Assembly: GCA_043812975.1 (NCBI GenBank)
Contig: JBDRLP010000040.1
Coordinates: 1-29,304, forward strand
Source: Candidatus Iainarchaeum sp.
GTDB lineage: Archaea; Iainarchaeota; Iainarchaeia; Iainarchaeales; Iainarchaeaceae
Length of the DNA: 29,304 nt
Reading direction: 5' to 3'
Shown: positions 1 through 24,606 of the stretch, in pieces
Position numbering within the stretch: the stretch's first letter is position 1
Layout of the letters: every line of letters begins with the position of its first letter
Notes under the pieces: model-generated
What the model saw: the letters and a program-made list of their open reading frames with translations, nothing else
What the model was told of the DNA's origin: nothing
The model's database searches: none
Translations under genes and position numbers: made by a program

Positions 1-52
1 TTAGAAAAGAAAAAATTTAGTAAAAGAAACTAACGCAAAAAAAGGCGAAAAC

Positions 53-1710: not shown

Positions 1711-2300
1711 AAATATTACTGATTGATAATTTTGATTCTTTTACTTATAATTTAGTTGATGAGTTTGAGAAAAGAAAATGTAAAGTGGAAGTTTACAGAA
1801 ATGATGTTCCGATAAAAACAATTAAGGAAATTGTGAAAAAAATGAAAGCAGATTTAATTGTAATTTCACCAGGACCAAGCACTCCAAAAAAAGCAGGCAA
1901 CAGCATGAAAATTATTAAAGAATTCAAAGGAAAAAAACCAATCTTCGGAGTTTGTTTAGGGGAACAAAGTATTATTGAAGCGCTTGGAGGAAAAGTTGGT
2001 AAAACCTTTGAAACAATTCATGGAAAAGCATCATTAATTAAGCACAATAACCAAGGTATTTTCAAAGGATTAAAAAATCCTTTTAGTGCTGGAAGATATC
2101 ATTCGCTTTCAGGACAAATAATTCCAAACGAGCTTGAAGTAAGTGCAAAAAGTTATTCGGGAATAGTAATGGGAGTTGCTCATAAAGAATATTTCCTAGA
2201 AGGAGTTCAGTTTCATCCTGAAAGTTTCCTTACTCCTGATGGTGGAAAAATTTTTGATAATGTTTTGAAAATGGTTAAATCAAAAGGAGTGAAAAAATGA
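1707..2300 (+). CDS. trpG: Anthranilate synthase component II (glutamine amidotransferase)
   Basis: IDNFDSFTYNL, SPGP, GVCLG and GVQFHPES motifs; ATGA overlap with trpE. Confidence 0.95.
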   Translation: MKILLIDNFDSFTYNLVDEFEKRKCKVEVYRNDVPIKTIKEIVKKMKADLIVISPGPSTPKKAGNSMKIIKEFKGKKPIFGVCLGEQSIIEALGGKVGKTFETIHGKASLIKHNNQGIFKGLKNPFSAGRYHSLSGQIIPNELEVSAKSYSGIVMGVAHKEYFLEGVQFHPESFLTPDGGKIFDNVLKMVKSKGVKK

Positions 2301-2383
2301 TTAATGTCCTACCGAGTCCATCCCTAAAGGGCGAGGTGGACGCGTACCCAACCGACGCAACGGTTGTGGGGGTGAAAAAATGA
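2297..2383 (+). CDS. 28-aa mini-ORF formed by the repeat element ([28 protein letters not shown])
   Basis: Its ATG overlaps the trpG TGA and its TGA overlaps the trpD ATG. Read manually; below the ORF-track length cutoff. Confidence 0.45.
   Translation: MINVLPSPSLKGEVDAYPTDATVVGVKK
2306..2366. repeat. Structured GC-rich repeat, copy A
   Basis: GTCCTACCGA...GAGGTGGACGCG-TACC-CAACCG-ACGCAA-CGGTTG; matches copies at 3399 and 24551. Confidence 0.85.
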
Positions 2384-3393
2384 TTTTGGAAGCAACTGAA
2401 AAAATTTCTGGGAAAAATAATCTCACTAGAGAAGAAGCAAAGGTGGTTTTTGATGAAATAATGAAAGGCAAAGCAACTCACGAACAGATTGTGAAACTCT
2501 TACTTGCACTGAATGAAAAAGGAGAATCAATTGAAGAAATACAAGGTGCTTGTGAATCAATGAGAAGTGTTGTTGCTAAAGTTACTTACTCAGGAGATGA
2601 AGATATTCTTGATGTTGTAGGAACCGGAGGAGACGGCAAAAGTTCTTTTAATGTTTCAACAACAAGCGCAATCGTGGCTGCTGGAGCAGGATGCATAGTT
2701 GCAAAGCATGGAAACAGAAGTGTTTCAAGTAAAAGCGGTGCTGCAGATGTGCTTGAAGCTTTAGGAGTTAATATTGAAACAAGTGCTGAGAGGAATTCTG
2801 AAATTTTGTCAAAAATTGGACTAGCCTTTATGTTTGCACCTAAACACCATCCTGCAATGAAGTATGCAATCGGTCCAAGAAAAGAAATTGGAAAAAGAAC
2901 AATATTCAATATTCTAGGGCCTATAACAAATCCGGCAAATGCTAATACTTATCTTTTAGGTGCTTATAGTGAGGAATTGGCTGAAAAACTGGCTTTTGTA
3001 CTGGCTGGATTAGACACAAAACATGCATTAGTAGTGCATGGTTCAGGGTTTGATGAAGCTACTTTAACCGGTAAAACAACAGTTTTTGCAGTATTAGATG
3101 GAAAAGTAGGAAAAACTGAAATAACTCCTGAACAGTTTGGATTGAAACTCTGTAAGGAAGAAGATCTGGCTGTGGAAAATGCTAAAGAATCCTCTGAGAT
3201 TGTAAAGAAAATTTTGAAAGGAGAAGAACAGGGAGCTAAAAGGAATACAATTCTTCTGAATGCTGGAATTGCAATTTTTGCTAATGGAAAAGCAAAAAGT
3301 ATTGAAGAAGGGATTGAGAAAGCAAGAGGAAGTATTGATTCCGGAAAAGCATTGGAAAAATTAAATTTACTTATAGAGGAGAGTAATAAATGA
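2380..3393 (+). CDS. trpD: Anthranilate phosphoribosyltransferase
   Basis: [35 protein letters not shown] and RTIFNILGP motifs. Confidence 0.97.
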
Positions 3394-3398
3394 TTAAT

Positions 3399-3450
3399 GT
3401 CCTACCGAAGGTGGACGCCGCCCGAAGGGCGTCCACTGACGCAACAGTGG
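3399..3450. repeat. Structured GC-rich repeat, copy B
   Basis: 21-nt identity (3388-3408) with 2295-2315; contains GGTGGACGC and CCACTG-ACGCAA-CAGTGG. Confidence 0.85.
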
Positions 3451-3464
3451 GAGGGGACCAACAA

Positions 3465-4850
3465 ATGAAATTTCTTGAAAAAGTTAAGAAGATTAAGCTC
3501 AGGGAAGTTGAGCAGAGAAAAAAGAAAGTTCCTTTGGAAAAGCTAAAGAAAAGTGTGAAGGAAGGGAAAAGGGTTTTTGCAAAGGCATTGAAAGGGAAGA
3601 AAAATGTTTCTTTGATTGCTGAATTCAAGAAAAGTTCTCCTTCAAGAGGAAAAATAAATTCAAACGCGTCACTGAAAGAATTCATTTCACTTTATGATGA
3701 GTATTGCGATTGCATTTCTATTCTAACTGAAGAAAAATATTTTTCAGGAAAACTTGATTTTATAAAACAAGCCAAGAGGTATACGCGAAAGCCTATTCTT
3801 AGAAAAGATTTCATTCTGGATGAATATCAGGTGTATGAAGCAAGGGCTTATGGTGCTGATGCTGTTCTTTTGATTGCTGGTTTTGTTTCTGAAAAGAAAT
3901 TAAAAGAACTTGTAAAGGTTATTGAAAAATTAGGAATGGATGCTTTAGTGGAAGCTGATTCTGCCGTGGGGTTGGAAAAAGCAATTGCTTCTGGTTCAAA
4001 ATTAATCGGGATTAACAACAGAAACCTTAATACTTTAAAAAAAGATTTTTCACGAACTGAAAAACTTTTGAAAACAATTTCACCTAAAAAAAGAAAACAA
4101 CTTACAATTGTTTCTGAATCTGCAATTGATTCACAAAAACAAGTTGAATCTTTGAAAGGAAAAACTGATGCTGTTTTAGTTGGCAGTGCAATAATGAGTT
4201 TTCCTGTTCCAAGAGTTAAACTTAGAGAACTAAGTGGAAAAACTCTTGTGAAAGTGTGTGGGATTACAAACAAAAAGGATGCACGAGATGCAGTAAAATT
4301 AGGTGCTGATGTAATTGGATTAAACTTTTACAAAAAAAGCCCGAGGTTTGTTAGTGTAAAACAAGCAAAAGAGATTGCAAAAGTTTTGAGGGGAAAGGTT
4401 TTGGTTGCAGGTGTTTTTGTAAATGAAAAAAAAGCAAGAGTGAAAAAGATTGCAAAGCAGGTTGGTTTGGATATTATTCAGTTTTCCGGAACAGAAAAAC
4501 CAAATTATGTAAATAGTTTTAAGATTCCAGTGATTAAGGCAATTCATATAAAAAACAAAAGTAGCGTTTCTGCTGCGGAGAGTTTTGATTCTGAAATGAT
4601 TATGGTTGATTCTTTTGTGAAAGGAGAATTTGGTGGCACAGGAAAAGCAATAAATCCAAAACTTGTTAATAAGGCTAAAATTAGCCAGAAACTAGTGTTT
4701 TCAGGGGGTTTGAGGCCAAATAATGTGGCTGGAGTCATAAAAAAATTCAATCCTTTGATGATTGATGTCTGCTCCGGAATTGAGAAAGAACCAGGGAAGA
4801 AAAGCTTAATTAAAATGAAATCCTTTATTAGGCAGGTGAGGGGAGTATGA
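3465..4850 (+). CDS. trpCF: Bifunctional indole-3-glycerol-phosphate synthase / phosphoribosylanthranilate isomerase; an in-frame upstream ATG at 3390 adds 25 repeat-derived residues
   Basis: [24 protein letters not shown] and GINNRNL (TrpC), then VKVCGIT, FGGTG and IDVCSGIE (TrpF). GGAGG lies upstream of ATG 3465. Confidence 0.93.
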
Positions 4851-10122: not shown

Positions 10123-10811
10123 TTGCGGTTCCAATAGTTGCTAATACTGTTACTGAAGCTATAGAACAAATTGATCTTGCTAATAAGGAAGCTGATGCAA
10201 TTGAACTAAGGCTTGATTATTTCAGGGAATTAAGTGAAACTGATTTGAAAAAATTGATTAGTAAATGTAAAAAACAAATTATTTGTACCTGCAGGAGAAA
10301 AGAAGAAGGTGGTTTATTTAATGAAACTGAATCCAAAAGAATTTCACTTTTAAAAAAGTGCATGAAACTTAAAGTTGATTTTATTGATCTTGAATTCGGA
10401 ACCAGCAAAACTCAGAAAGATAAAATTTTCGAGTACAGAAAAGAACATAAATTAAAAACCAAAATTATTATTTCAAAACATTTCTATGGATTTACTCCTC
10501 AGTTACACGATTTAGAAAAACTTCTGGAAAAAATGAAAAAAAAAGCAGATGTTGTTAAAATTATTACAAAAGCAAATGGCCACGAGGATAATAAAATAAT
10601 TTTTTCTCTTCTTAGGCATGCGAAAAGAAAAGGAATTAAACTTATTTCATTCTGTATGGGCATCATGGGAAGAGATTCAAGGATTCTTGCAATGCCATTA
10701 GGAAGTTTTCTTACTTTTGCTTCTTTACAAAAAGGAAATGAAAGTGCTGACGGACAAATACCTATTGTTGAAATGAAAAAAATCTATTCTGGTTTGAGGA
10801 TGATGTTTTGA
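10119..10811 (+). CDS. aroD: Type I 3-dehydroquinate dehydratase
   Basis: ADAIELRLD, TCRRKEEGG, FCMGIMGRDSR and SADGQI motifs. Confidence 0.93.
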   Translation: MIAVPIVANTVTEAIEQIDLANKEADAIELRLDYFRELSETDLKKLISKCKKQIICTCRRKEEGGLFNETESKRISLLKKCMKLKVDFIDLEFGTSKTQKDKIFEYRKEHKLKTKIIISKHFYGFTPQLHDLEKLLEKMKKKADVVKIITKANGHEDNKIIFSLLRHAKRKGIKLISFCMGIMGRDSRILAMPLGSFLTFASLQKGNESADGQIPIVEMKKIYSGLRMMF

Positions 10812-11161
10812 TGCCACATGAACGCCCTAAAAGAGAGATTGTAAAGGAACTCCAAAAAGCTAGACGTCCTCAGCCTGAATTTCGACACGATCCAAGGCGA
10901 AATGCAGCAGTATTAGGAATTGAAGCCCTAATAAAAATTGCTATTGATACACCTAAAGGGCAAAAACCTCCGCTAAAAATATTAGTTATAGCTATTGACC
11001 TTTTTGAGGAAGAATATAAAGGTCGATTAACAGACCCCCAACAAAAGTTGATTATTTTCTTAAGAAAACAAATAGAAGAACAAGATTTAGATGCTTTATC
11101 TAAACTACTTCACCAGAACACTTGTTTTTTAAAATTAGCACCAATAGGAGTGAAAAAATGA
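10811..11161 (+). CDS. Hypothetical protein inserted between aroD and aroE
   Basis: ATG 10811 overlaps the aroD TGA and its stop overlaps the aroE ATG; ~116 aa, no motif. Confidence 0.7.
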   Translation: MPHERPKREIVKELQKARRPQPEFRHDPRRNAAVLGIEALIKIAIDTPKGQKPPLKILVIAIDLFEEEYKGRLTDPQQKLIIFLRKQIEEQDLDALSKLLHQNTCFLKLAPIGVKK

Positions 11162-11973
11162 TTGATTCAAAAACAAAACTTGTAGCACTATTGGGAAAAC
11201 CAGTAAGGCATTCTTTGAGTCCTGTAATGCAGAATGCTGGATTTAATGCTTTGGGTTTGAATTACGTATACCTTGCTTTTGAACCTGAGAACCTGAAAAA
11301 GGCTGTTGAGGGTTTAAAGGAAATGGAAGTTGCTGGTTTTAATATTACAATGCCGTTCAAAACAGAAATAATGAATTACCTTGATAGAATAGACCCTATT
11401 GCAAAAAAAATCGGAGCGGTTAACACGGTTGTAAATACGCGCAATGGTTTGGTTGGTTACAATACTGATGGTGTTGGTGCTGTGGAATCACTAAAAAAAA
11501 TTACTTCTCTTAAGGGAAAAAAAGTACTTTTAATAGGAGCTGGCGGAGCTGGAAAATCAATCGGGTTTTATCTGAAAAAAGAAGGTGCAAAAATAACAGT
11601 TGCAAACAAACCTGAATTACAGGCAATAAAACTTGCAAAACTTTTAGGGGAAAAAAGCATTCCGATTGATTCAATAAATTCACTTGAAGAATTTGATATT
11701 CTTATCAATGCAACTCCCATAGGAATGAAACCAAATACTAATCAAACTGCAATTCCAACAAAATTATTAACAAAAAAGATTATTGTATTTGATATTATTT
11801 ATAATCCAATGGAAACAAAATTACTAAAAGAAGCAAAAAAGAAAGGATGCAAAACAATTAATGGTTTGGAAATGCTTCTCAATCAAGGTTATGCGGGTTT
11901 CAAATTATTCACGGGAAAAGAAGCGCCAAAAAATGAAATGAGAAATGCAATTATGAAGGAGCTGAAAAAATGA
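11158..11973 (+). CDS. aroE: Shikimate dehydrogenase
   Basis: HSLSPVMQN, NITMPFK, GAVNT, GYNTDG, GAGGAG and NATPIGM motifs. Start moved to ATG 11158, which follows a GGAGTGA RBS. Confidence 0.96.
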   Translation: MIDSKTKLVALLGKPVRHSLSPVMQNAGFNALGLNYVYLAFEPENLKKAVEGLKEMEVAGFNITMPFKTEIMNYLDRIDPIAKKIGAVNTVVNTRNGLVGYNTDGVGAVESLKKITSLKGKKVLLIGAGGAGKSIGFYLKKEGAKITVANKPELQAIKLAKLLGEKSIPIDSINSLEEFDILINATPIGMKPNTNQTAIPTKLLTKKIIVFDIIYNPMETKLLKEAKKKGCKTINGLEMLLNQGYAGFKLFTGKEAPKNEMRNAIMKELKK

Positions 11974-13040
11974 CAGCAAACGAATTTGGAAAAAGTTTCA
12001 AAATAATTACTTTTGGGGAATCCCACGGAACAGGAATCGGAGTAGTCATCGACGGAGTTAAAGCAGGAATGCGGATTTCTGTGCGCGATATTCAGAAAGA
12101 ACTTGACAGAAGAAGACCAGGGCAAAGCAAAATATCAACTCAGAGAAAAGAACCTGATTCTGTTGAAATAATTTCAGGAATCTTTAAAGGAAAAACATTG
12201 GGAACACCAATATGCTTACTTATTCGCAACAAGGATTATCGCTCAAAAGATTATTCTGAAATAAAAAAACTTTTCAGACCGGGACACGCGGGTTACACTT
12301 ATTTGAAAAAGTACGGAATAAGAGATCACAGGGGTGGAGGAAGAAGCTCCGGAAGAGAAACAGCAGCAAGAGTTGCTGCAGGAGCTATTGCAAAAAAACA
12401 GCTTGCAAAAAAACGAATTAAAATTATCGGGCATGTAAAAGCAATTGCAGGAATTGAAGCAAAAAAGTTTGATGAAAAAGAAATTGAAAAAAATCCTGTG
12501 AGATGTGCTGATAAAAATATAGCAAAAAAAATGGAAAAAGCGATTATTAATGCAAGTAAAAAGAAAGATTCTGTCGGAGGAATTGTTGAGGTTATTGTGA
12601 AAGGCGTTCCTGTTGGTCTGGGCGAACCGGTTTTTTCAAAACTTGATGCTGAACTTGCAAAGGCTTTGATGAGTATTGGTGCGGTGAAAGGATTTGAAAT
12701 TGGAACTGGTTTCGCGTGTGCGGAAATGAAAGGCTCTGAATTTAATGATGAAATCAGAAAAATAAAGGGGAAGGTGAAGTTTCTGTCAAATAATTCAGGC
12801 GGTATTTTAGGCGGAATTTCCAATGGAGATGACATTATACTAAGAATAGCTGTAAAGCCAACAGCTTCTATTTCCCAAAAACAGAAAACCATTGATAAGA
12901 GCCTGAAAAACGCGTTTATTGAGACTAAAGGAAGACATGACCCTTGTATTTGTCCAAGGATTGTACCTGTAGCTGAAGCTATGGTGGCTCTGGTATTACA
13001 GGATATGATTCAAACCCAAAAATCAAGGAAATCGAAATAA
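11970..13040 (+). CDS. aroC: Chorismate synthase
   Basis: TFGESHG, RRRPGQS, RPGHA, RGGGRSSGRET, GGILGGIS and GRHDPC motifs. Confidence 0.98.
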   Translation: MTANEFGKSFKIITFGESHGTGIGVVIDGVKAGMRISVRDIQKELDRRRPGQSKISTQRKEPDSVEIISGIFKGKTLGTPICLLIRNKDYRSKDYSEIKKLFRPGHAGYTYLKKYGIRDHRGGGRSSGRETAARVAAGAIAKKQLAKKRIKIIGHVKAIAGIEAKKFDEKEIEKNPVRCADKNIAKKMEKAIINASKKKDSVGGIVEVIVKGVPVGLGEPVFSKLDAELAKALMSIGAVKGFEIGTGFACAEMKGSEFNDEIRKIKGKVKFLSNNSGGILGGISNGDDIILRIAVKPTASISQKQKTIDKSLKNAFIETKGRHDPCICPRIVPVAEAMVALVLQDMIQTQKSRKSK

Positions 13041-13065
13041 AAACTGAACGGAATTTAATTTTCTC

Positions 13066-14820
13066 ATGGTTTCAACTTTTTCTTTTCACGGAAAGCAAGC
13101 TATTATCAGAACCAGCAGACTTGACTGGAGTGAAAAAGATACTATTATTGAAAGCGAATTATTCAGAACAGTTCTTAGCAAATATATGAACTCACTAAGA
13201 AAACATGACTCAGAACTCATTTCTATTTTTCCTGAGAAAGACCCTGAAAAGCAGGTTGAAAATGCTTTAAATCTTTTAAAGAAGCTGACAAAAAAGCACA
13301 GGAAGAAAATTGTAGAGAAAGAACCTGAGCTTGAAAAATATTTTTCAGATATTTATTTGATTGACCAGTTTATAGAACATCTTTATAATTATTGGAGGAG
13401 CTTTGAAAGATATTTGGTGTTGCATTCAAATGCAACACGTCCAAGTGAAGAACACATTGATAAACAACCTTACAGGATTTTTAATGATACAATTGAGGAA
13501 CTAAACCACCAGACAAGAAGTGTTTACAGAGATATTCGTGAAAACATTACTGGTGAGCACCCGATTATTTTCAGACAGATGCCTGCAGGGTGTCAGGTAG
13601 GAATTATTGCTGCACGTAAAGAATTAAAGTTGCCTAAAGAGTATTCTGCACTAAAAAAAATTCCTACAATAAGACAGGTTTTCATAGAACCGCCACTTAT
13701 ACTAGATCCGCCAATGAACAAGAGAAAAGGAATGTTCAAATTAGTTGATTCAAACCCGCTTGACGGAATTGATTTGAACGGTGATGAGTGGCTGTGCTTT
13801 CCTGCAAAAGTAGGCGAACTGAACATTCACCTTTATTTCCACGAGTATTACACAGGCTTAGGAATTTCAACTTCAAATTTGTTTGAGCTGTGTGATGATG
13901 AAGACTTAAAGAAGAAACCAGATGCAATTTATGCTTTCGGCGTTCCTGATTCTGCTTTGGAAAAGTATTCTGAAAAAACAATTTTTTATCATGATAAAAA
14001 AAATGATCTCATGGTAGGAGCTTTGCCTGTTGCTGATGAGTTTGGTTATTTTGGTTATGTGAAAAAAATGATGTTAACCCTTTACAATTCAATAATGATT
14101 CAAAAAGGAAGGCTTCCTGTGCACGGAGCAATGACAAGAATAACTTTGAAGGACGGGTCAAAGGCAAACGTAATTATTATGGGTGATTCAGGCACTGGAA
14201 AAAGCGAATCTCTGGAAGCATTCAGAATTCTTGGTGATGAATACATAAAGGACATGCCTATTATTTTTGACGACATGGGTTCACTCAGTCTTGATGATGG
14301 CAAAATAAAGGCTTTTGGAACTGAAACAGGTGCTTTTGTGAGACTTGATGATTTGGATGCTGGTTATGCCTTTGGAAACATTGATCGTTCAATTATAATG
14401 AGTCCTTCAAAAGTAAATGCTAGAGCAGTGCTGCCTATAACCACCTTAAAGGAAATTCTTTCGGGTTGGCCGGTGGATTTCTTTTTATATGCAAACAATT
14501 ATGACGAGGTAAAAAACGGAGCTTACATTAAAAAATTTGATAGCCCTGAAGCAGCAATGAGTGTTTTCAAAGAAGGTAAAAGAATGGCTAAAGGAACAAC
14601 AGTTGACACAGGGATTGTTGGAGCTTATTATGCAAACATCTTTGGCCCAGCACAATTTCAAAAAGAGCATGATGTTCTTGCTGAAAAATATTTCAAAGCA
14701 CTTTTTGATACAGGTGTTTTTGTCGGGCAGATAAATACACAGCTTGGAGTTAAGGGAATGGAAAGAGAAGGCCCACAGAAAGCTGCAAAAGAATTATTTG
14801 AAATTATAAAGAAAAAATAG
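13066..14820 (+). CDS. Phosphoenolpyruvate carboxykinase-like protein (divergent ATP-type family)
   Basis: YFGYVKKMMLT, LPVHGAM, GDSGTGKSE P-loop, IFDDMG and GTETGAFVRLDDL motifs. Confidence 0.75.
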   Translation: MVSTFSFHGKQAIIRTSRLDWSEKDTIIESELFRTVLSKYMNSLRKHDSELISIFPEKDPEKQVENALNLLKKLTKKHRKKIVEKEPELEKYFSDIYLIDQFIEHLYNYWRSFERYLVLHSNATRPSEEHIDKQPYRIFNDTIEELNHQTRSVYRDIRENITGEHPIIFRQMPAGCQVGIIAARKELKLPKEYSALKKIPTIRQVFIEPPLILDPPMNKRKGMFKLVDSNPLDGIDLNGDEWLCFPAKVGELNIHLYFHEYYTGLGISTSNLFELCDDEDLKKKPDAIYAFGVPDSALEKYSEKTIFYHDKKNDLMVGALPVADEFGYFGYVKKMMLTLYNSIMIQKGRLPVHGAMTRITLKDGSKANVIIMGDSGTGKSESLEAFRILGDEYIKDMPIIFDDMGSLSLDDGKIKAFGTETGAFVRLDDLDAGYAFGNIDRSIIMSPSKVNARAVLPITTLKEILSGWPVDFFLYANNYDEVKNGAYIKKFDSPEAAMSVFKEGKRMAKGTTVDTGIVGAYYANIFGPAQFQKEHDVLAEKYFKALFDTGVFVGQINTQLGVKGMEREGPQKAAKELFEIIKKK

Positions 14821-14829
14821 TTAAAAAAT

Positions 14830-15825
14830 TTATTTAGTAATTTTTTGGAAAGGTGAATAATTAATCTTATTAATTTTTGTGAAAATAAAATAATTATAAT
14901 CTTTGATTTTATCAGAAAACTTTTCCTTAAACCTTGACATTACTTCCAGAAACTCTGCATGCTTCTGGGCTACAAGCTCTATTTCAAAATCCGAATATGA
15001 AATACTCTCATCAACATAAATTGAGTTTGGGTTAGTTTTTGCAAACTCAAGCATTTCAGCATAATTTTCCAGATCTTTGAGATCAAAGTTTGCCTTATAA
15101 TGTGTCAACCCAAGTTTTTGAAGATTGATTCTGGTTCTGAAACCGAGAATAACTTTCTTTTCCCGAAGCTGTTTAATAGCGTACTTTACCTGGATTGCAC
15201 TTAAGCCTGCTTGTTTGGCTATCTCAACAGTAGGCATCCTTGCATTTTCAGAAATAATTTCAAGTACTTTTTCCTCAGTTCCTGTAAGTAATATTTTTTC
15301 TGCCGGCAATATACCTTGCGTTGATCTTTCAAGGACTTTTTCAGGCATAAAAAACGCATAGCTAAAATCATGTAACCCAACGTAAACTGAAATAACTTTT
15401 TCCTGAATATATTTCTGGTACTTATTTACAAAGCCATCCCAGAAATCCTTGAGCTCTAAAGTATTTTTTGCCCATATCAACACAGTAAGGTCAAAGGCAC
15501 CGTCAGTCGTACCGACCCACCATGTCAGAGGATGCTTCACCATATAGGAAAGGATTTCATTTTCTTTTTTCGGATTGATGTACTGCCACTTAAAGTAGAA
15601 TCTGTAACTCTGGTAACCAAGCTTAGTGGAGTTTATCACAGTATAAAAGCCACGAATAATATTTTTTTCCATGAGCCTGTTTATCCTGTAATTAACTACA
15701 TTTTTGTCAATACCTATTTTATCTGCTAATTTACTATTGCTCTGTCTTGCATCCCTGTCCAATTCAAACAGGATTTCATGGTCTTTTTTGTTCAAATCTG
15801 GAAAATTAAAAGAAAAACTACTCAT
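14830..15825 (-). CDS. Tandem-domain Lrp/AsnC-family transcriptional regulator
   Basis: Two HTH modules (LDRDARQSNSKLADKIG...VNYRINRL and ISENARMPTVEIAKQAG...VKYAIKQL), each followed by a RAM-like domain. ATG at 15825 preferred as start. Confidence 0.88.
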   Translation of the reverse strand: MSSFSFNFPDLNKKDHEILFELDRDARQSNSKLADKIGIDKNVVNYRINRLMEKNIIRGFYTVINSTKLGYQSYRFYFKWQYINPKKENEILSYMVKHPLTWWVGTTDGAFDLTVLIWAKNTLELKDFWDGFVNKYQKYIQEKVISVYVGLHDFSYAFFMPEKVLERSTQGILPAEKILLTGTEEKVLEIISENARMPTVEIAKQAGLSAIQVKYAIKQLREKKVILGFRTRINLQKLGLTHYKANFDLKDLENYAEMLEFAKTNPNSIYVDESISYSDFEIELVAQKHAEFLEVMSRFKEKFSDKIKDYNYFIFTKINKINYSPFQKITK

Positions 15826-15873
15826 TAAAGAATATTGATAAAACAAGTATAATAATTTATCATTTTGACCTAA

Positions 15874-15898
15874 TTTACTAGTAAAAGTTTAATTAAAC
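15874..15898. promoter_or_regulatory. Two adjacent perfect 12-bp palindromes in a divergent promoter region (candidate operators)
   Basis: TTTACTAGTAAA (15874-15885) and GTTTAATTAAAC (15887-15898). Confidence 0.4.
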
Positions 15899-15940
15899 AA
15901 GTAAAGCATAATAATACTATTAACCTTGATCGGTGATTAG

Positions 15941-16693
15941 ATGAAAAAGAATTTGCACTCTAGCAATCTTGTTGAAATGTGGGGAGATTTTATTGACTGG
16001 GAAGCCAGAAGGAAAGGGGAAAATGGTTTCCTTGAGAATACCCTAAGAGAAAACAAGTGCACAAAGATTTTTGACTCAACTTTGGGGGACGGCTGTGACT
16101 CAGTACATCTGATAAAAAAAGGATTTGATGTAACCAGTAATGAAGTTGATTCCAATTTCCTTGCCAAGGCTATCCAGAATTCAAAAAACCACAATGTTAA
16201 ACTGAAAGTTACTGAACACGATTGGAGAAATGTTTCTGAACATTTAGGGATTAACGTTTTTGATGCTGTGCTTTGCCTTGGAAATTCTATTGCTTATCTT
16301 TTCAAAAAAAATGACCGTCTGAAATCAATAAAAGAATTTTTCCGTATTTTAAAACCTGGCGGAATCCTAATTATTGACGAAAGAAACCATCGCTATCTCC
16401 TCAACAACCGCGAGGAAATTTTGAATGGAAATTTCAAGTACAAGGGAAAATATGTTTACTGCGGGAAACATGTAAAGGGCTTTCCAATTGAAATATCTGA
16501 TGACTTGTTCAAAATGAAATATGTTGATAACCGTAATGGAAAATTTGCCTCTCTGGATATTTATCCATATAAGGAAAATGAGCTTGAAAACGAGTTAAAG
16601 AACGCAGGTTTTGCAGACATAACCTTGTTTGCAGATTACAGTAAAACTCCTGAAGGAACTCCTGATTTTTTCCAGTACATTGCAAAGAAGTGA
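15941..16693 (+). CDS. Class I SAM-dependent methyltransferase, glycine/sarcosine N-methyltransferase-like
   Basis: WGDFIDWEARRKGE N-terminus, FDAVLCLGNS, LKPGGILIIDERN and PDFFQYIAKK resemble the GSMT family; GGTGA RBS. Confidence 0.8.
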   Translation: MKKNLHSSNLVEMWGDFIDWEARRKGENGFLENTLRENKCTKIFDSTLGDGCDSVHLIKKGFDVTSNEVDSNFLAKAIQNSKNHNVKLKVTEHDWRNVSEHLGINVFDAVLCLGNSIAYLFKKNDRLKSIKEFFRILKPGGILIIDERNHRYLLNNREEILNGNFKYKGKYVYCGKHVKGFPIEISDDLFKMKYVDNRNGKFASLDIYPYKENELENELKNAGFADITLFADYSKTPEGTPDFFQYIAKK

Positions 16694-16697
16694 TTGG

Positions 16698-18146
16698 ATG
16701 AAAATAGGTCTTGTTCATCCAAATTGTGATAGTGTCCATAAAAAACAAAGACAGGCTTACGGCCCTTTAGAAAGGCCACCGGAAACAGGTCTGGCAGTTT
16801 TAAGTTCATGGATCAAAGAATACTCTGTCAATGATCACGAGATAACTGTTTTCAACCCTAATAAATCAATAAAGGAACTTGCCAGGCAGGCATCACAATG
16901 TGATTTATTGGGAATGACTAACTGGTTTGCCAATCACGGTTATTGCATAGAAATATCCAGGCTTGCAAAACAAATTAACCCTGAATTGAAAGTTGTTTTC
17001 GGCGGTCCAAATGCTTCAATGATTCCAAAAGAAATTTTTCATAATAACTCCCATGTTGACTATGTTGTAAACCGCGATGGGGAAGATGCATTGCTTTCCA
17101 TTGCGGATGAAAAACCATTAAGCTTAGTTCCAAATTTGTGGTTTAAAGACAGTTATAATAATCCACGGTTTACTTTTCAATCTTACACTGATTTGTCAAA
17201 AATGCCTTTGTGGAATTATTCTAATTTTGAGGATGTGGAAAAAAGATTTTCTGAATATTTGCATGTGCAAAAAACAGGTTTGGATCCATGGCTTACTCCT
17301 CCATTGACGCTTTTCAGTTTTAGGGGCTGCCTGAAAGCCATTAGGGAAGGAATCTGCAGTTACTGCACTTCATCTGAAGCAACAGGAAGAATGTTATCTG
17401 CTCAAAAATTCTGGGATCAGATAATGCACTTGAATAATAATTATGATGCAGAAATTTTTTACATGGCTGACGATATTTTCCCTGTAAGTCCTATTAGAAT
17501 AAATACTTTAGCAAATGCAAAGCCTCATGAAGCAAGAGCAAAAATAAGGGCTTACGCATATCTCCCTTATCTTTCAAAGCTGGCAGATTCCCAGTTAACC
17601 CGAATGGCACATGACCTACAAAAAATTGGAGTATTCAATTTGTTTTTTGGCGCAGAAAACTATGATGAAAACATTCTAAAGAATATCAATAAAACAGGAA
17701 TTAGCGTTGAGGAAACTGCCAGAATAATGAAACTGTTTTACAAGGAAGGCGGAATAAAATCCACAGTTGCTTTTATGCTTGGGTTGCCTGGAGAATCAAA
17801 ACAAACCATGGAGTATAATAAAAATGTTCTTAAGAGACTTCTCGAATCAGGCTGCTTTGAGAGACTTTACATTTCTATTGCTGCTCCTTTTAAAGGAAGT
17901 TTTTGGTGTAAAAGCCTTGAGTCAGATAAAAAATTCCTTGCAGACTATGAGACTGCTACAGGCAAGAATCTGCAGTTTGATGATGCTCCTGATTATGGGT
18001 TGCTTTCAAGGTTGTCCATTAAGCACAAAACCTCAACAAATCCCGAGGAACTTATCAATTATTTTGAGTCAATGATTGACATGGCTTTACAGTATATGCC
18101 TGAATATAGAGTAGGTGGATTTTTAACCGATTTTGGAGTTAACTGA
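16698..18146 (+). CDS. B12-binding-domain radical SAM protein
   Basis: N-terminal cobalamin-binding domain (VVFGGPNAS, DYVVNRDGE), then RGC-x8-C-x2-C, MADDIF, FGAEN and FMLGLPGES. ATG 16698 preferred over the TTG at 16629. Confidence 0.85.
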   Translation: MKIGLVHPNCDSVHKKQRQAYGPLERPPETGLAVLSSWIKEYSVNDHEITVFNPNKSIKELARQASQCDLLGMTNWFANHGYCIEISRLAKQINPELKVVFGGPNASMIPKEIFHNNSHVDYVVNRDGEDALLSIADEKPLSLVPNLWFKDSYNNPRFTFQSYTDLSKMPLWNYSNFEDVEKRFSEYLHVQKTGLDPWLTPPLTLFSFRGCLKAIREGICSYCTSSEATGRMLSAQKFWDQIMHLNNNYDAEIFYMADDIFPVSPIRINTLANAKPHEARAKIRAYAYLPYLSKLADSQLTRMAHDLQKIGVFNLFFGAENYDENILKNINKTGISVEETARIMKLFYKEGGIKSTVAFMLGLPGESKQTMEYNKNVLKRLLESGCFERLYISIAAPFKGSFWCKSLESDKKFLADYETATGKNLQFDDAPDYGLLSRLSIKHKTSTNPEELINYFESMIDMALQYMPEYRVGGFLTDFGVN

Positions 18147-18153
18147 TTTAGAT

Positions 18154-18181
18154 GATTGTGAATACGCGAATACTTACAATT
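18154..18181. terminator. Hairpin between convergent genes, possible terminator
   Basis: GATTGTGAATA-CGCGAA-TACTTACAATT imperfect stem. Confidence 0.35.
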
Positions 18182-18222
18182 AAAAATTTCTAGGGCAACT
18201 GTAACTGAGGCTAATGTTGATT

Positions 18223-19215
18223 TTAGGATTCCCACGGGAAGAGAATGAGCTTGTATTCCTTGTAGTAAAGCATTATTTCAAAATCCCTCACAATGTCATT
18301 GAACTTGTACCTCATATCATTCATAAACTCCTGGAGTTCAGAACTGTTCCTGAAGAAACCCTCTATTTCAAGATCAGCACCACCTATGAGCTCATCCGTG
18401 TAAACAATGTTAGGATGCTGAATACAATAATTATTTAGTTCATTGAATCTTTTTTCCGAATAATCCTTAAAGGAAGCGTGTATTTTCCAGTACTCATAAC
18501 CTATTTTGGAGAGGTCAAGCTGCACACCATAACTTCCAATAACTCTCTCCTTTTCTAAATTTTTTATTCGATAAGAAACAACCTTGTCACTTGCTCCAAC
18601 CTGTTGTGCAATTGAGATTAATGGTTCACGCGCATGCTCGGAAAGAACGCTAAGTATTTTCACATCAAGATCATCAAAATCAATTTTTTCACTACCACCC
18701 ATTACAAACGGTTCAAATGATTCTGGTTTTTTTCCAACAAGAAATCCTTTTGGTAGATTGATGAACCAGCCAAAAAGAGATGTCCAGCGATTGGAAATAT
18801 AGTTTCCATAAAGTTTTTTGAATTCTTTCCAGAATTTGAAAAAGTGATTGGTGCTTTTTGCCCAGTAAATGAAATTAATATCCCAGTTGCCCTGCACTTT
18901 TGCACACCAGCCAACCTGCTTTTGGGAAACTATATAATCTATAAGTTCTTTCTCTTTTTCAGGAGTAATGTTCTGCAACCTGAGAAAAGTTCTGAACATC
19001 TCAAGACCCATTTTTGAAGCATCAACTCTCGCGTAAAAACTCCTGATGACACCTTCTTCAGTAAGCTTGTTTATTCTATAATTAACTACTTCCTTGCTCA
19101 AACCAACTTTCTTTCCTATCTGGGAAAGGGACTGCCTTGCATCAAGATCCAGTTCATAAAGGATTTTTCTATCTTTAACATCTAATTCCAATACTTTTTC
19201 AACCATATTTACCAT
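18223..19215 (-). CDS. Tandem-domain Lrp/AsnC-family transcriptional regulator
   Basis: LDVKDRKILYELDLDARQSLSQIGKKVGLSKEVVNYRI plus a second HTH; paralog of 14830-15825. Confidence 0.9.
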   Translation of the reverse strand: MVNMVEKVLELDVKDRKILYELDLDARQSLSQIGKKVGLSKEVVNYRINKLTEEGVIRSFYARVDASKMGLEMFRTFLRLQNITPEKEKELIDYIVSQKQVGWCAKVQGNWDINFIYWAKSTNHFFKFWKEFKKLYGNYISNRWTSLFGWFINLPKGFLVGKKPESFEPFVMGGSEKIDFDDLDVKILSVLSEHAREPLISIAQQVGASDKVVSYRIKNLEKERVIGSYGVQLDLSKIGYEYWKIHASFKDYSEKRFNELNNYCIQHPNIVYTDELIGGADLEIEGFFRNSSELQEFMNDMRYKFNDIVRDFEIMLYYKEYKLILFPWES

Positions 19216-19467: not shown

Positions 19468-19479
19468 AAAGGTGAAAAA

Positions 19480-20018: not shown

Positions 20019-20061
20019 GGCTTTTAAACAAAACCCTACTTAATTAGCCTGAGGAAAAAAA

Positions 20062-20424: not shown

Positions 20425-20447
20425 AACTGATTATCAAACAGAACTGA

Positions 20448-21047
20448 TTATTTGAAATCATTCAGATAAGGAATTTTAGAAACTTTTTCTTTTGTTTTAT
20501 CAAGGGCACTTACAAGTATTCCAAGCGTATCCCATGAACCATCAAGTAAACTCTTTCTTCTTGCTTCGGGAATTTCTATTGGAACAAACTCACCATTAAA
20601 AATAATTTTCTTGTTTTCAATATCAACAACAAATTCAGAATCGCTTTTACTAGCAGATTCCTGAAGTTTCTCAATAATCTTTTCTGAAACAATTATACAT
20701 GGAATTCCAAGCATTTGACAGGTGCCCGCGAAAATCTCAGCAAAACTTTCTCCTATAATGGCCTTGATTCCCCATCGCATTAATGCCTGAGGCGCATGTT
20801 CTCTTGAAGAACCGCATCCGAAATTCTTGTTCACAACAAGAACAGAAGCACCTTGGTATTTTGGGTCATTGAATGAATGTTCTTTTTCTTTTTTATTTTC
20901 ATCAAATCTAACATCATAAAAGGCAAACTTTCCTAAATCATCAAAGGTAACCGTCCTCATAAATCTGGCCGGAATAATCTCATCAGTATCAATATCATTT
21001 CCCTTAACAAGTATTGGTTTTCCTTTAACCTGTACTATTTTGTTCAT
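20448..21047 (-). CDS. leuD: 3-isopropylmalate dehydratase small subunit
   Basis: [27 protein letters not shown] and SFAEIF motifs. Confidence 0.95.
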
Positions 21048-22438
21048 AATATTTCCCTCACATCAGTAATTTTTCCATTAATTGCAGCAGCTGCAACCAT
21101 CGCAGGGCTCATTAAAATAGTTCTTCCGGTAGTACTTCCTTGTCTGCCCTTAAAATTTCTGTTAGATGTTGAAGCACAAATTTCTCTTCCATTTAACTTA
21201 TCAGGATTCATTGCAAGGCACATTGAACAACCTGAATCCCTCCACTCAAAACCTGCAGCAATAAATATTTTGTCAAGACCTTCTTCCTCAGCCTGCTTTT
21301 TCACTTGTTGGGAACCTGATACAACAAGAGCCCTTATATTTGAAGCAACTTTTTTTCCATCAATAATTTTTGCTGCTTCTCTTAAATCAGAAATCCTTCC
21401 GTTAGTACATGAACCAATGAATGCAACGTTGATTTTTTTTCCAAGCATTTGTTCATCCTCATTAAAACCCATGTACTGCAAAGCATCTTCACAAATTTTT
21501 TGCTCATTCTCAGGAAGGCTTTTTATTTTAGGGATTTTCTCAGTAACCCCTATTGCCTGGCCTGGAGTTATCCCCCAGGTAACCATTGGTTCTATTGCAG
21601 AACCGTCAATTGAATAAATATCACCGTAGTCAGCATTCGAATCAGAGGCAATGCTTTTCCAGAATTCTTTTGCTTTTTCAAAATTTTTTGAAACATATTC
21701 TTTCCCTTTCAAATAAGAGAAAGTTTTCTCATCAGGATTAATGTAACCTGCTCTTGCACCTCCTTCAATACTCATGTTGCACACAGTCATTCTTTCTTCA
21801 ATATTCATTTCCTCAAACACTTTTCCTGAGTACTCATAAGCATAACCAAGACCGCCTTTTACTCCAAGTTCTTTTATTATTCTTAATATAACATCTTTGG
21901 CAAAAACCCCTTTTGCAAGAGAACCATTAATCTCAATTTTCCTGACTTTTGGTTTTGCAATCGAAATGCATTGTGAGGCCAAAACATCTCTTATTTGTGA
22001 AGTACCAATTCCGAAAGCGATTGCACCAAACGCACCGTGAGTACTTGTATGTGAATCTCCGCAAGCAATAGTCATTCCTGGCTGCGCCAATCCAAGTTCA
22101 GCAGCAATGACATGTATAACTCCCTGCTTTCCTGTATCCGGACCAAAAAAAGTTATTTTTGATTCAGAAGTATTTTTTTCAATTGCAACCATCATTTCCT
22201 CTGCGAGAGAATCCCTGAACGGCCTTTCCCTGTTTTCAGTCGGGATTATATGATCAGCAGTGGCAAATGTTCTTTCAGGAAAAGCAACCTTAATGCCTTT
22301 CTCACGGAGCATTGCAAAAGCCTGAGGACTTGTAACCTCATGCATTAAATGTGTCCCTATAAATAACTGGCTCTCTCCATTAGGAAGTTTCTGAACCTCG
22401 TGCATTTGCCATACTTTGTTGAATAAGTTATCACTCAT
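21044..22438 (-). CDS. leuC: 3-isopropylmalate dehydratase large subunit (bacterial type)
   Basis: [42 protein letters not shown] and [12 protein letters not shown] motifs. Likely start [10 protein letters not shown] at 22438. Confidence 0.96.
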
Positions 22439-22557
22439 ACAATCTAATGATTTAGGCATGGTTAGGTTTAAAATCTTAAACCAGAGTTCGAATTTTTTTA
22501 AACTATTCAATGGCCTAAAACAAAGCAATATAATAAGAATCTTAAATAATAGAGACT

Positions 22558-23037
22558 ATGAATTCAAAAATTGGTTTACCAATAATTATGGCATTTGCTT
22601 TGGTTCTTTTAGTAAGCGGATGTACTCAGGCACAGAATACAGAAAGTGATGCAATGGAAAACGTTATGGATAATGGCGCCCCGCAAGGAGATGCAATGGA
22701 AGATGATAGTATGATGGAAATAGAAAATACTATTACATATTCTGATGACGGTTTCTCCCCAAGCCCACTAACAATAAAAGTTGGTGAATCAGTCATATGG
22801 ATTAACAACTCTAGTATTGACATGTGGCCCGCAAGTGCAATGCACCCTATACACACAGCATATCCTGGTTCCGACATAAAGAAATGTGGTTCAACTCAAG
22901 AATCCTTGCTATTCGATGCTTGTAAGGGTATTTCCCCAGGCAACACGTACAGCTTCATTTTTAATGAGGCCGGCGAATGGTTCTACCATGACCACCTTAC
23001 ATCAGGAAATTTTGGGCAAGTTATTGTGAAATCTTAA
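22558..23037 (+). CDS. Cupredoxin-fold (plastocyanin/azurin-like) lipoprotein
   Basis: Signal peptide with LVSGC lipobox; FSPSPLTIKVGESVIWIN, MHPIH and GEWFYHDHL motifs. Confidence 0.8.
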   Translation: MNSKIGLPIIMAFALVLLVSGCTQAQNTESDAMENVMDNGAPQGDAMEDDSMMEIENTITYSDDGFSPSPLTIKVGESVIWINNSSIDMWPASAMHPIHTAYPGSDIKKCGSTQESLLFDACKGISPGNTYSFIFNEAGEWFYHDHLTSGNFGQVIVKS

Positions 23038-23072
23038 AAAACAACACACAGTTTGCCAAATTTTAAAATAAG

Positions 23073-23092
23073 GGATTTATCCCAATAAATCC
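23073..23092. promoter_or_regulatory. Perfect 8-4-8 inverted repeat (terminator or metal-regulator operator)
   Basis: GGATTTAT-CCCA-ATAAATCC followed by a T-rich tract, upstream of the ZIP gene. Confidence 0.45.
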
Positions 23093-23147
23093 TAAATTTC
23101 TTTCTTTTTTAAATTAGTTTAAAAATACTAACTTTAATTATTTTCTA

Positions 23148-23897
23148 ATGACTGATGCTTGGATTTATGCAATTGCAAGTGTAATCATAGTAAGCTTGAT
23201 TTCTCTTATAGGGATTTTTACATTTTCAATTGAATTAGAAAAACTCAAAAAATATTTGCACTATTTTGTGAGTTTCTCTGCCGGAGCATTATTGGGCGGT
23301 GCTTTTATACACCTCATTCCTGAAATTGTTGAGGAATATGGTTTTGTAACAGAAATTTCAGCGTTCATTCTAATAGGAATTATTTTTTCTTTTGTACTTG
23401 AAAAAATTATCCGATGGAGACATTGCCACACCCCTACCTCAGATGAACACCCACATCCCTTTGCAATAATGAATCTTGTCGGAGATGGGTTTCACAATTT
23501 TTTAGATGGCTTAATTATAGGGGCTAGTTATCTGATTAGTATCCCAGTAGGTATTGCTACAACTGTTGCTGTTATTTTGCACGAAATTCCTCAGGAAATC
23601 GGAGACTTTGGAGTTTTAATTCACGGAGGATTTTCAAGAAAGAAAGCTCTTACTCTTAATTTTTTGAGTGCACTCGTTGCAATAATAGGAGTATTAATTG
23701 CCTTGACTTTAACCTCTTTTGTTGACAATCTTACTCTTTATTTAGTTCCTTTTGCAGCAGGAACCTTCATTTACATTGCAGGTTCTGATTTAATTCCGGA
23801 ACTTCACAAAAATGATGGCACTATACAATCAATAATAGAATTAATTGTATTCATTTTAGGAATAGCAATAATGGCTGCGCTTCTAATGATTAGTTGA
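23148..23897 (+). CDS. ZIP-family divalent metal transporter
   Basis: FSAGALLG, HLIPE, His-rich loop, HNFLDG, HEIPQEIGDFGVL and DLIPE motifs. Confidence 0.93.
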   Translation: MTDAWIYAIASVIIVSLISLIGIFTFSIELEKLKKYLHYFVSFSAGALLGGAFIHLIPEIVEEYGFVTEISAFILIGIIFSFVLEKIIRWRHCHTPTSDEHPHPFAIMNLVGDGFHNFLDGLIIGASYLISIPVGIATTVAVILHEIPQEIGDFGVLIHGGFSRKKALTLNFLSALVAIIGVLIALTLTSFVDNLTLYLVPFAAGTFIYIAGSDLIPELHKNDGTIQSIIELIVFILGIAIMAALLMIS

Positions 23898-23902
23898 TAT
23901 AG

Positions 23903-24454
23903 ATGACTTTAACACCTTCAAATTATGCTGTTCTGAAAAAAGGAGATACGGCTCCTGATTTTGATTTATTAGGAACTGATGGGAAAACTCATTCACTGGA
24001 AAAAACAGGAAAAGTCTATTTGGTTATTTTTATGTGCAACCACTGCCCTTACGTGGTTCCGAAATTCAAATATCTGAAAGAATTGTTTGAAAAATATGAA
24101 AGCAAGGGTTTGGTTATGGTTGGGATTAACAGCAATGATACTGAATCATATGGTGAAGATGATATGGAACATATGAAAGAATATTATATTGAACAGGGCT
24201 TCAGGTTTTCTTACTTATTGGATGAAACACAGGAAGTTGCAAAAAAATATGGTGCTGCCTGTACTCCAGACCCATTCTTGTTTGATGCAAAAAAGAAACT
24301 TGTATACCACGGCAGGATTGATGATGCTCATATGAAAGAACACGAAAAAGCAAAAACCAATGAACTTGAAGAAGCAATAAAGCAGGTTCTTGAAGGAAAA
24401 GAAGTTACTGTGAAGGAAGAACCTTCTCTTGGGTGTAATGTGAAGTGGAAATAA
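23903..24454 (+). CDS. Thioredoxin-fold protein (AhpC/TSA-like)
   Basis: APDFDL, FMCNHCPYV, GINSND, ACTPD, YHGRIDD and SLGCNVKWK motifs. Confidence 0.92.
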   Translation: MTLTPSNYAVLKKGDTAPDFDLLGTDGKTHSLEKTGKVYLVIFMCNHCPYVVPKFKYLKELFEKYESKGLVMVGINSNDTESYGEDDMEHMKEYYIEQGFRFSYLLDETQEVAKKYGAACTPDPFLFDAKKKLVYHGRIDDAHMKEHEKAKTNELEEAIKQVLEGKEVTVKEEPSLGCNVKWK

Positions 24455-24543
24455 TGAGCTGTAAATGTTTTAAGGATAAAAACCAAAAATGGCATTTGTG
24501 CAAACCGTGTTTGGAATATTTGTACAGGGATTATAAGCCTTAA
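24454..24543 (+). CDS. Putative 29-aa Cys-rich microprotein
   Basis: TAATG overlap with the upstream gene; MSCKCFKDKNQKWHLCKPCLEYLYRDYKP. Confidence 0.45.
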   Translation: MSCKCFKDKNQKWHLCKPCLEYLYRDYKP

Positions 24544-24550
24544 CTTTACA

Positions 24551-24606
24551 GTCCTACCGAGTCCTTGCGGACGAGGTGGACGCGCACCTCACAGCCGCAA
24601 CTGTGA
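24551..24606. repeat. Structured GC-rich repeat, copy C
   Basis: GTCCTACCGAGTCC-TTGC-GGACGAGGTGGACGCG-CACC-TCACAG-CCGCAA-CTGTGA, abutting the carB stop. Confidence 0.85.

Follow-up and report, generated by a model that had tools for sequence, protein, structure and literature searches.

Here we report a family of short, GC-rich repeats in the genome of an AT-rich archaeon of the DPANN type, detected in a 29,304 nt stretch of DNA (the window) from contig JBDRLP010000040.1 of the Candidatus Iainarchaeum sp. assembly GCA_043812975.1. We put at about 80% the probability that these repeats, 43–90 nt in length, are non-coding insertion elements forming a lineage-restricted family. As we show below, they share a fold maintained by compensatory changes, occupy sites which are empty in related genomes, are flanked by long target duplications asymmetrically placed around them and lie, in a number of cases, directly against the 5' end of tRNA genes. 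From these features we infer that insertion proceeds by staggered cleavage of the target, followed by selection on the survivors.

The genome (G000 in our comparisons) consists of 1.24 Mb in 68 contigs, with 35% GC, an estimated completeness of 94.5% and a coding fraction of about 90%, according to a crude call of open reading frames (ORFs). Its 16S fragments carry the word CAGCCGCCGCGG, which we take to be an archaeal signature. The window corresponds to contig C40, and its gene content includes genes of the trp and shikimate pathways.

Three copies of the repeat, all on the plus strand, had been proposed in the window by an initial annotation made from the sequence alone, and all three are borne out: copy A (2306..2366, 61 nt), located between trpG and trpD; copy B (3399..3450, 52 nt), between trpD and trpC/F; and copy C (24551..24606, 56 nt), between two convergent genes, one of the redoxin family, ending at 24454, and carB (stop codon at 24607–24609, minus strand). 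The 5' word GTCCTACCGA occurs exactly in the window at three sites only (2306, 3399 and 24551), while a fourth match, with one mismatch, at 15506, lacks the remainder of the element; the four matches found with at most one mismatch compare with 0.29 expected by chance, and none of 100 shuffles reached four. The common core GGTGGACGC is present in all three copies, each of which ends in a 6-bp hairpin of different sequence (CAACCG/CGGTTG, CCACTG/CAGTGG and TCACAG/CTGTGA), closed by an ACGCAA or CCGCAA loop. Copy A is composed of a first helix, P1 (GTCC(T)ACC-GA, an apical hairpin, and GA-GGTGGAC), a linker, GCGTACC, and the terminal helix P2 (CAACCG-ACGCAA-CGGTTG). Copy B features a short P1 with a GAA loop and, in place of GYACC, an extra middle hairpin, CGCCC-GAA-GGGCG, followed by P2 (CCACTG-ACGCAA-CAGTGG); the C-GAA-G loops pointed out by the initial annotation are indeed present. 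A covariance model built on the element, R1, scores the three copies at 70.8 bits (E 7e-13), 51.4 bits (E 1.4e-8) and 67.7 bits, respectively. Their position at stop codons was also correctly noticed: copies A and B lie 6 nt past the stops of trpG and trpD, and copy C ends 1 nt ahead of the carB stop, on the minus strand.

A fourth insertion, of about 57 nt, was missed by the initial annotation. It lies at the trpE/trpG junction (~1643–1699, minus strand), is a GC island containing the hairpins GGGCC-TTGT-GCCC and AGCCGC-GGGCTT-GCGGCT, and belongs to a sister type whose 3' module recurs, in opposite orientation, at C3:31196 and C42:11359. R1 does not match it and its fold z value is +0.25, so that its assignment to the family is made by the shared 3' module alone.

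That the window repeats are part of a larger family became clear on scanning the whole genome. A pattern scan found about 25 more copies of the GTCCTACYGA type, and R1 returned 44 matches at E<=1, 34 of them at E<=0.01. Scanning for the terminal hairpin only revealed that other P1 helices (GTAGCATCGA...GAAGATGGTAC and TTATAACCCATCGCAGATGGGTT) are joined to the same 3' module, bringing to at least three the P1 types sharing it; all 16 strict P1 hairpins of subfamily i have a 3' module after them. When R1 was run over G000 and 60 relatives, matches at E<=0.01 were obtained in 23 of the 61 genomes, including 5 out of 5 within the genus and 17 out of 22 within the family, and weak matches alone in 5 out of 38 genomes from other families of the order. 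In a wider sample of the phylum, 11 of 151 genomes were positive at E<=1e-4, all of them within two families.

The family does not coincide with any described one among those searched, in agreement with the novelty originally proposed. No match to Rfam was found in the window at the gathering threshold, and fourteen element loci, searched at E<=1, returned the flanking tRNAs and two chance matches below gathering, and nothing else; search listings and the opening parts of abstracts yielded no description of the element. No match to the family pattern was detected in viral contigs, and a single match to the 3' module, of 14 bits in a GC-rich phage-like contig, was discarded as a chance one. Metagenome contigs contributed 32 loci, 16 of which with full elements; judging by their scores and flanks, several appear to be the source contigs of relatives already compared. 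No longer, gene-bearing version of the element was found among the viral and metagenome contigs scanned.

The shared structure was written by hand on an alignment, A2, of 15 genome copies of the GTCCTACYGA type: P1 comprises 4 bp, a bulged T, 3 bp, a tandem G.A/A.G and an optional apical stem, and is separated by a linker from the 6 bp of P2. The general plan of the element is a P1 of 7–8 bp with the conserved tandem G.A/A.G, a linker, either GC-GYACC or the CGCCC-GAA-GGGCG hairpin, and a P2 with an NCGCAA loop; sister types follow the same plan with different helix sequences and different 3' hairpins. In A2, 99.1% of the 217 cells are paired, against 88.2% in shuffles, and the covariation score is 0.330, against 0.131: none of 500 shuffles was as high in either respect. 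Changes on both sides were found in 7 of the 15 base pairs, and sliding the structure along the alignment left just 29–51% of the cells paired. The same two-helix structure is the minimum free energy (MFE) RNA fold of each window copy taken alone (z -2.6 to -2.9); folding as DNA reproduces it for two of the three copies, the DNA folds having z values of -1.8 to -3.6.

The initial annotation had also called attention to the tetranucleotide GTAG, present on the minus strand, as a tag of the type found in repetitive extragenic palindromic (REP) sequences. The tetranucleotide is there, but its role as a tag did not stand, since GTAG/CTAC is contained within the covarying helix P1: among the 15 copies, pair 6–32 is AU in 13, GC, by compensation, in one and unpaired in one, pair 8–30 is CG in 11 and UA in 4, and other P1 types have CTAT, CCAT or CTGT in place of CTAC. 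The ratio of G.U to A.C combinations is 5:1 in A2 and 19:3 in 57 matches from relatives, an alignment fitted to R1 which may favour G.U somewhat. Because of this excess, selection appears to act on the GTCC strand, and the fold seems to be selected on that strand rather than as a double-stranded cruciform. A pseudoknot between the GCG of the linker and the CGC of the P2 loop was considered and rejected: its pairing is invariant, and the middle-hairpin type does not preserve it.

Comparison with congeners revealed the empty sites that the initial annotation had proposed to look for. The window sites were aligned in G003, G004 and G005, and in part in G002. In the first three genomes, trpG and trpD meet at a plain overlapping stop/start without copy A, the trpD/trpC junction is equally plain and without copy B (and so is that of G002, on a weak alignment) and the trpE/trpG junction is without the ~1643–1699 insertion. 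In G003, the convergent genes on either side of copy C lie directly next to each other, and a spacer of about 150 nt including the element is missing. None of the four window sites is thus shared with alignable congeners, the operons being otherwise collinear, and by this comparison the window repeats are insertions. Upstream of copy C, an AT-rich spacer of 96 nt (24455–24550), also absent from G003, resembles the 3' end of carB in two short segments, which stand in swapped order, and may be what remains of older duplications.

Many copies lie between direct repeats of the target, a feature likewise missed by the initial annotation. Copy A is flanked by GGAGTGAAAAAATGATT (2286..2302, plus strand), containing the trpG stop and a start codon, and GGGGTGAAAAAATGATT (2369..2385, plus strand), containing a purine-rich stretch and the trpD ATG (2380): the two are 17 nt long, with one mismatch (score 14), and the junction is single in G003. 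In copy B, the upstream repeat GAGGAGAGTAATAAATGA (3376..3393, plus strand), corresponding to the last trpD codons and the stop, is diverged, and matches by eye 14 out of 18 positions of the downstream one, GAGGGGACCAACAAATGA (3451..3468, plus strand), which contains the trpC/F start (3465); the automatic scan gives a score of just 8, and G003 has one copy of the target, GAGGCGAGCAACAAATGA. The purine-rich stretch following P2 is duplicated target, and not part of the element.

The flanks of 34 G000 copies were scanned for repeats along with 600 random sites, taking scores of at least 14 as significant. Such repeats flank 14 of the 34 copies and none of the random sites, where the maximum was 12; they measure 14, 14, 15, 16, 17, 17, 20, 20, 20, 20, 22, 24, 27 and 45 nt. 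Their arrangement is asymmetric: the downstream repeat starts 0–2 nt past P2 in 13 of the 14 copies, while the upstream one ends anywhere from 0 to 48 nt ahead of P1. In relatives, with scores of at least 10 counted, repeats flank 19 of 51 copies, are 10–38 nt long and, in 14 of the 19, leave a downstream gap of 0–2 nt; perfect repeats of 20, 32 and 34 nt are found there, which points to recent events. The extra sequence on the 5' side is of various kinds: a diverged duplication, by eye, in C52 and C41, a recognisable module, AATGCGAnCG..GAGCAA, in some copies and, in one copy with a perfect 34-nt duplication, an unrelated filler of 22 nt. A donor search with this filler, a single case, matched only the copy itself. 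At C21:14394, the 5' junction features a 6-nt microhomology, GCAGTA.

Nearly all copies lie no more than a few bases from the end of a gene, and some inside ORFs. Out of 40 matches, 23 are in sense, 7 in antisense and 10 in ambiguous orientation, as read on the crude ORF call; those of ambiguous orientation mostly lie between convergent genes. At coupled junctions, the insert is open to translation. Copy A is crossed by a relay frame of 28 codons, by translation (2297..2383, plus strand), whose ATG overlaps the trpG stop and whose TGA overlaps the trpD ATG, in both cases as ATGA. Copy B is crossed by an open frame of 25 codons (3390..3464, plus strand; ORF 3390..4850), in frame with trpC/F, which may be read as an N-terminal extension or a relay, the IGPS and PRAI domains beginning downstream of the copy, at 3465. 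The fourth insertion makes the TrpE C-terminus about 19 residues longer, in frame, and keeps the ATGA junction with trpG. The junction copies stay translatable, which we read as selection on the survivors. Coding of a conserved peptide (VLP..VDA..TDATV) was considered as an explanation and rejected: copy C and the copies in tRNA leaders are non-coding, and the junction copy on C52 is read in another frame.

A second location of the element is immediately upstream of tRNA genes. Five tRNA genes of G000 (Ile-UAU, Ser-GCU, Glu-UUC, Trp and Leu-GAG) have a copy ending at their position -1/+1, and in none of the 20 tRNA genes listed does an element lie 5–70 nt upstream. Among relatives, 6 of 51 copies abut the 5' end of a tRNA identified by ARAGORN, and two more apparently do so, by eye, as do about 6 of the 16 full elements from metagenome contigs. 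The leader of tRNA-Ile(UAU) is GC-rich over its last 55 nt in 16 out of 22 genomes of the family, and the leaders that were read are two-hairpin elements ending one base ahead of the tRNA; the helix types found there vary, even within the genus. In G005, G009, G011, G013 and G017 the same 55 nt are AT-rich (GC 0.16–0.38), with a conserved promoter-like motif in G009 and G017. RNase P RNA is present. Three insertions are found in the 3' halves of tRNA genes and, by eye, their duplication starts at the 5' base of the T-stem. A general rule, by which insertions start at the 5' base of hairpins, was rejected, as a crude MFE test found 8 out of 31 against 5.2 expected, with no clear enrichment; by eye, it holds for tRNA targets alone.

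Some further features of the tRNA genes and of similar flanks were recorded. Three tRNA genes, tRNA-Cys, tRNA-Ser(GGA) and tRNA-Glu(CUC), are immediately preceded by an AT-rich conserved palindrome (...ttctttcttttaagaaagaaaaagg...), in the upstream flanks of C7:428-589, C17:7769-7923 and C26:15979-16054 of G000. ARAGORN, run without introns, finds just 22 tRNAs in this genome; with introns allowed, unusually long ones, of 69–120 nt, are predicted at C25:51223-51391, C7:428-589, C26:6735-6929, C65:11841-11990 and C17:7769-7923. At C34:~14880-14906, an element copy is followed by a conserved GC-rich start, GGGCGGGACGGCGCC..., and the same flank occurs in G001 (L050) and G002 (L026); this start is neither a tRNA nor matched by Rfam, and may mark where another small RNA gene begins.

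Taken as the scars of insertion, these features suggest the following course of events. The target would be opened by cuts staggered by 14–45 nt and then filled in, producing a direct duplication of long and variable size; the downstream repeat would begin exactly where the 3' end of the element is joined, while its 5' side would gain 0–48 nt of variable extra sequence. The copies that have survived would be those in which the duplication restores a tRNA end or one of the signals of translation (stop codon, start codon or ribosome-binding stretch), and at coupled junctions ribosomes would still be able to pass the insert, which serves there as a relay frame or extends the neighbouring gene in frame. 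Directly 5' of tRNA genes, the element has a second habitat. As no enzyme was found in this genome, this mechanism is derived from the scars only.

Several observations weigh against the interpretation of the family as insertion elements. No insertion polymorphism was observed at strain level, and mobility is deduced from comparison between species only; DNA contigs of a public run are fragmentary, stop inside or just before the elements and gave no joint spanning one. Twenty of the 34 G000 copies are without a significant flank repeat, being either old or differently inserted, and a simple duplication does not account for the 96-nt spacer upstream of copy C. A mobilising enzyme was sought with six Pfam families, and none could be paired with the element. 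Y1_Tnp (PF01797), which in a control was found in 6 of 14 named genomes, has no matches in G000; RVT_1 has none in G000 nor in any of 23 family genomes, and Cas1 is absent. The sole TnpB-like gene (C9:1157-2374) has flanks which, by eye, are unlike the element. The two DDE_Tnp_1 genes, with reading frames of 312 and 321 aa, are single-copy, their only match being one of 91 bp, within coding sequence, to each other, and this family was not detected in G003 and G005, which are rich in elements; one rve gene is present in G000. Considered as candidate partners, neither the DDE_Tnp_1 pair nor the gene similar to TnpB revealed shared ends. Insertion sequences (ISs) are often missing from such assemblies. 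Finally, the structure kept through compensatory change, the sense-biased orientation and the occupation of the tRNA-Ile leader across genera fit function as well as they fit selfish spread. In the window itself, as the initial annotation had stated, no transposase was found among the 30 ORFs scanned against Pfam; the other ORFs of at least 80 aa are situated within these or antisense to them. One of the DDE_Tnp_1 genes (C20:12650-13177) is surrounded by a series of GC-rich islands (C20:~10600-18500), a region that looks like foreign DNA of higher GC content.

The element could be primarily a functional cis-acting RNA, either a pre-tRNA leader aiding RNase P or an intercistronic signal for processing or stability, its spread being the result of recruitment. 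Such a function is supported by the strong covariation, by the prevalence of G.U over A.C on the sense strand, by the sense orientation of 23 of the 30 scorable copies and by the association with tRNAs, namely the five genes of G000 carrying the element and the GC-rich leaders of tRNA-Ile(UAU) in 16 of 22 genomes, ending, where read, 1 nt ahead of the tRNA across genera; the presence of RNase P RNA implies that the leader would come off as a discrete RNA. A primary function is difficult to reconcile with the absence of the four window copies from congeners whose operons are otherwise collinear, with the copies inside coding frames or in antisense (7 of 40), and with the duplications, which mark the copies as insertions; even at the tRNA-Ile leader, the element is replaced by AT-rich sequence in the five genomes listed above, and its type differs within the genus. 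We therefore consider this explanation unlikely for the family as a whole. The initial annotation had offered a cis-acting RNA motif as one of its two readings: this may hold for the copies in tRNA leaders, but cannot describe the primary nature of those flanked by duplications and absent from congeners.

Its other reading, a non-autonomous element similar to REP sequences or to miniature inverted-repeat transposable elements (MITEs), stands in so far as the repeats are non-autonomous, repeated, structured and inserted, with no Rfam match and no description in the literature listings searched, while the proposed link to HUH transposases of the REP-associated tyrosine transposase (RAYT) or IS200/IS605 type does not. 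In this form, the repeats would be REPs, REPINs or palindrome-associated transposable elements (PATEs) derived from IS200/IS605, moved as folded single-stranded DNA by a Y1 HUH transposase (RAYT or TnpA). Hairpins with C-GNA-G loops, stable as single-stranded DNA, the DNA folding values, GTAG on the minus strand and the one TnpB-like gene would all be in line with it; yet there is no Y1_Tnp in G000, GTAG belongs to a covarying stem and not to a fixed flank, the TnpB flanks lack the element, some copies are inside ORFs and the target duplications are long, while such chemistry makes none. This explanation is extremely improbable, and close to refuted. A third possibility is a retroposon-like process, in which the tRNA-leader copies are the masters and RNase P releases from them a leader RNA ending at the end of P2, subsequently copied into staggered nicks by target priming. 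Target-primed copying would account for a precise 3' end, a variable 5' end and long duplications of variable size, all of which are observed (14–45 nt for the latter), and it would agree with elements ending at the RNase P site of tRNA genes, with the presence of RNase P RNA, with the microhomology at one 5' junction (GCAGTA, C21:14394) and with the finding that the 5' module of some dispersed copies also precedes leader copies. On the other hand, RVT_1 is missing from the 23 family genomes, there is no A-rich tail, the donor search with the one 5' filler found the copy itself alone, and no core truncated at its 5' side was seen, all 16 strict subfamily-i P1 hairpins being accompanied by a 3' module. 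We judge this process quite improbable. Nearly as improbable, in our view, is a related proposal, in which movement of the elements depends on an RNA with a 3' end generated by RNase P, the copies in tRNA 5' leaders acting as masters and the released leader as the intermediate, joined at staggered breaks.

MITEs, such as Sulfolobus SM1–4 and the Correia elements of Neisseria, are small, non-coding, non-autonomous elements with target duplications. The present family resembles them in being small, non-coding, multi-copy, lineage-restricted and geneless, in having target duplications and in leaving empty sites in relatives. In contrast to MITEs, it has no terminal inverted repeats (5' GTCCTAC..., 3' ...CNGTNG): by reading, with no dedicated scan, the 5' GTCCTACCGA is not the reverse complement of the 3' CGGTTG, CAGTGG or CTGTGA. 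Moreover, its duplications are long and variable (14–45 nt), and not of a fixed 2–10 nt, the element has one precise and one ragged end, and no parent IS sharing its ends has come to light so far. In REP/REPIN–RAYT systems, insertion occurs without target duplication, and in IS200/IS605, whose partner is the Y1 transposase TnpA, it takes place 3' of a fixed target of 4–5 nt, again with no duplication. Unlike in PATEs of this origin, targets of the present element vary and are duplicated, Y1_Tnp is lacking and the flanks of the TnpB-like gene are not element-like. REPs and REPINs mobilised by RAYT, along with GTAG-tagged palindromes, are the subject of PMC3733652. The family is similar to them in consisting of short GC-rich hairpin repeats, often located just past stop codons, with GTAG on one strand; it differs by the absence of a RAYT/Y1 gene, by the covarying position of GTAG in a stem, by its target duplications and by the copies in reading frames and tRNA leaders.

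Two bacterial families are comparable for their relation to genes. The Rickettsia palindromic elements (RPEs) of Ogata et al. 2000 are reportedly structured repeats tolerated in frame within protein genes, and copy B and the ~1643–1699 insertion similarly add residues to TrpC/F and TrpE. Our elements differ from RPEs in their archaeal host, unrelated sequence and size, about half, as well as in the long target duplications which rebuild junction signals and in the tie of the family to tRNA 5' ends. The mycobacterial interspersed repetitive units (MIRUs) of Supply et al. 1997 are said to lie between coupled operon genes, with a small ORF overlapping the flanking stop and start; the small ORF of copy A likewise overlaps, with its own start and stop, the signals of the coupled genes on either side. 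MIRUs are tandem minisatellite units, whereas ours are single hairpin units, and the overlapping signals come from the duplicated target. Long, variable duplications are made by short interspersed elements (SINEs) and retroposons without long terminal repeats (non-LTR), and by ISs of the IS1634 type, all of which share with our family a target duplication varying in length up to tens of bases; SINEs also share the precise 3' end, the variable 5' end and the link to tRNA genes. Our family differs in that a reverse transcriptase is missing from the 23 genomes and the element has neither an A-tail nor inverted terminal repeats; IS1634-type transposases are also much larger than the DDE_Tnp_1 frames of G000. 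Reverse transcriptases of DPANN archaea are treated in PMC8632793. In summary of these comparisons, the element fails the tests for REP/RAYT, for IS200/IS605 PATEs and for classical MITEs, and has the scar pattern of a retroposon but no reverse transcriptase.

Genomes of about 1.2 Mb, some 90% of which is coding, are expected to leave little space for selfish DNA. Dozens of copies of this family nevertheless persist in core biosynthetic and other operons, as well as ahead of tRNA genes, and their insertion duplicates the very signals which it would otherwise destroy. The absence of inverted ends, the long and variable duplications, the single anchored end, the placement at tRNA 5' ends and the lack of a transposase or reverse transcriptase together fit none of the described prokaryotic mechanisms tested, so that an unknown activity remains to be found; the machinery responsible for one-end-anchored duplications of 14–45 nt and for placement at tRNA 5' ends may belong to no known class of transposases. 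Should the RNA route through RNase P prove true, it would represent a SINE-like lifestyle in archaea without a recognisable reverse transcriptase, and would hint at an activity, so far unknown, that copies or joins. On the practical side, the elements affect the annotation of such archaea through false N-terminal extensions, spurious small ORFs and contig breaks.

Two genes of the window show further irregularities. The trpE gene is split over two frames at 823–875: the ORF 5..871 ends in ...KKHVL*, and the conserved GDVFQVV motif runs on in the next frame, within the ORF 823..1710. Pfam places Anth_synt_I_N on the former and Chorismate_bind, from profile position 56, on the latter; a frameshift, an assembly error and recoding are the alternatives. 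In carB (24607–27838, minus strand), an intervening sequence of 41 nt (~27761–27801), located between the codons for ...GQAGE and FDYSG..., shifts the frame and contains an in-frame TGA, leaving the first 26 or so codons as a separate small ORF. It occurs once in the genome, and its fold is not the canonical bulge-helix-bulge. At this site G003 and G005 show no interruption; the intervening stretch measures 40 nt in G004 and 44 nt in G002. The exon sequence on either side hardly differs among the three carriers, and has a higher GC content in them. This sequence is a candidate mRNA intron or small insertion.

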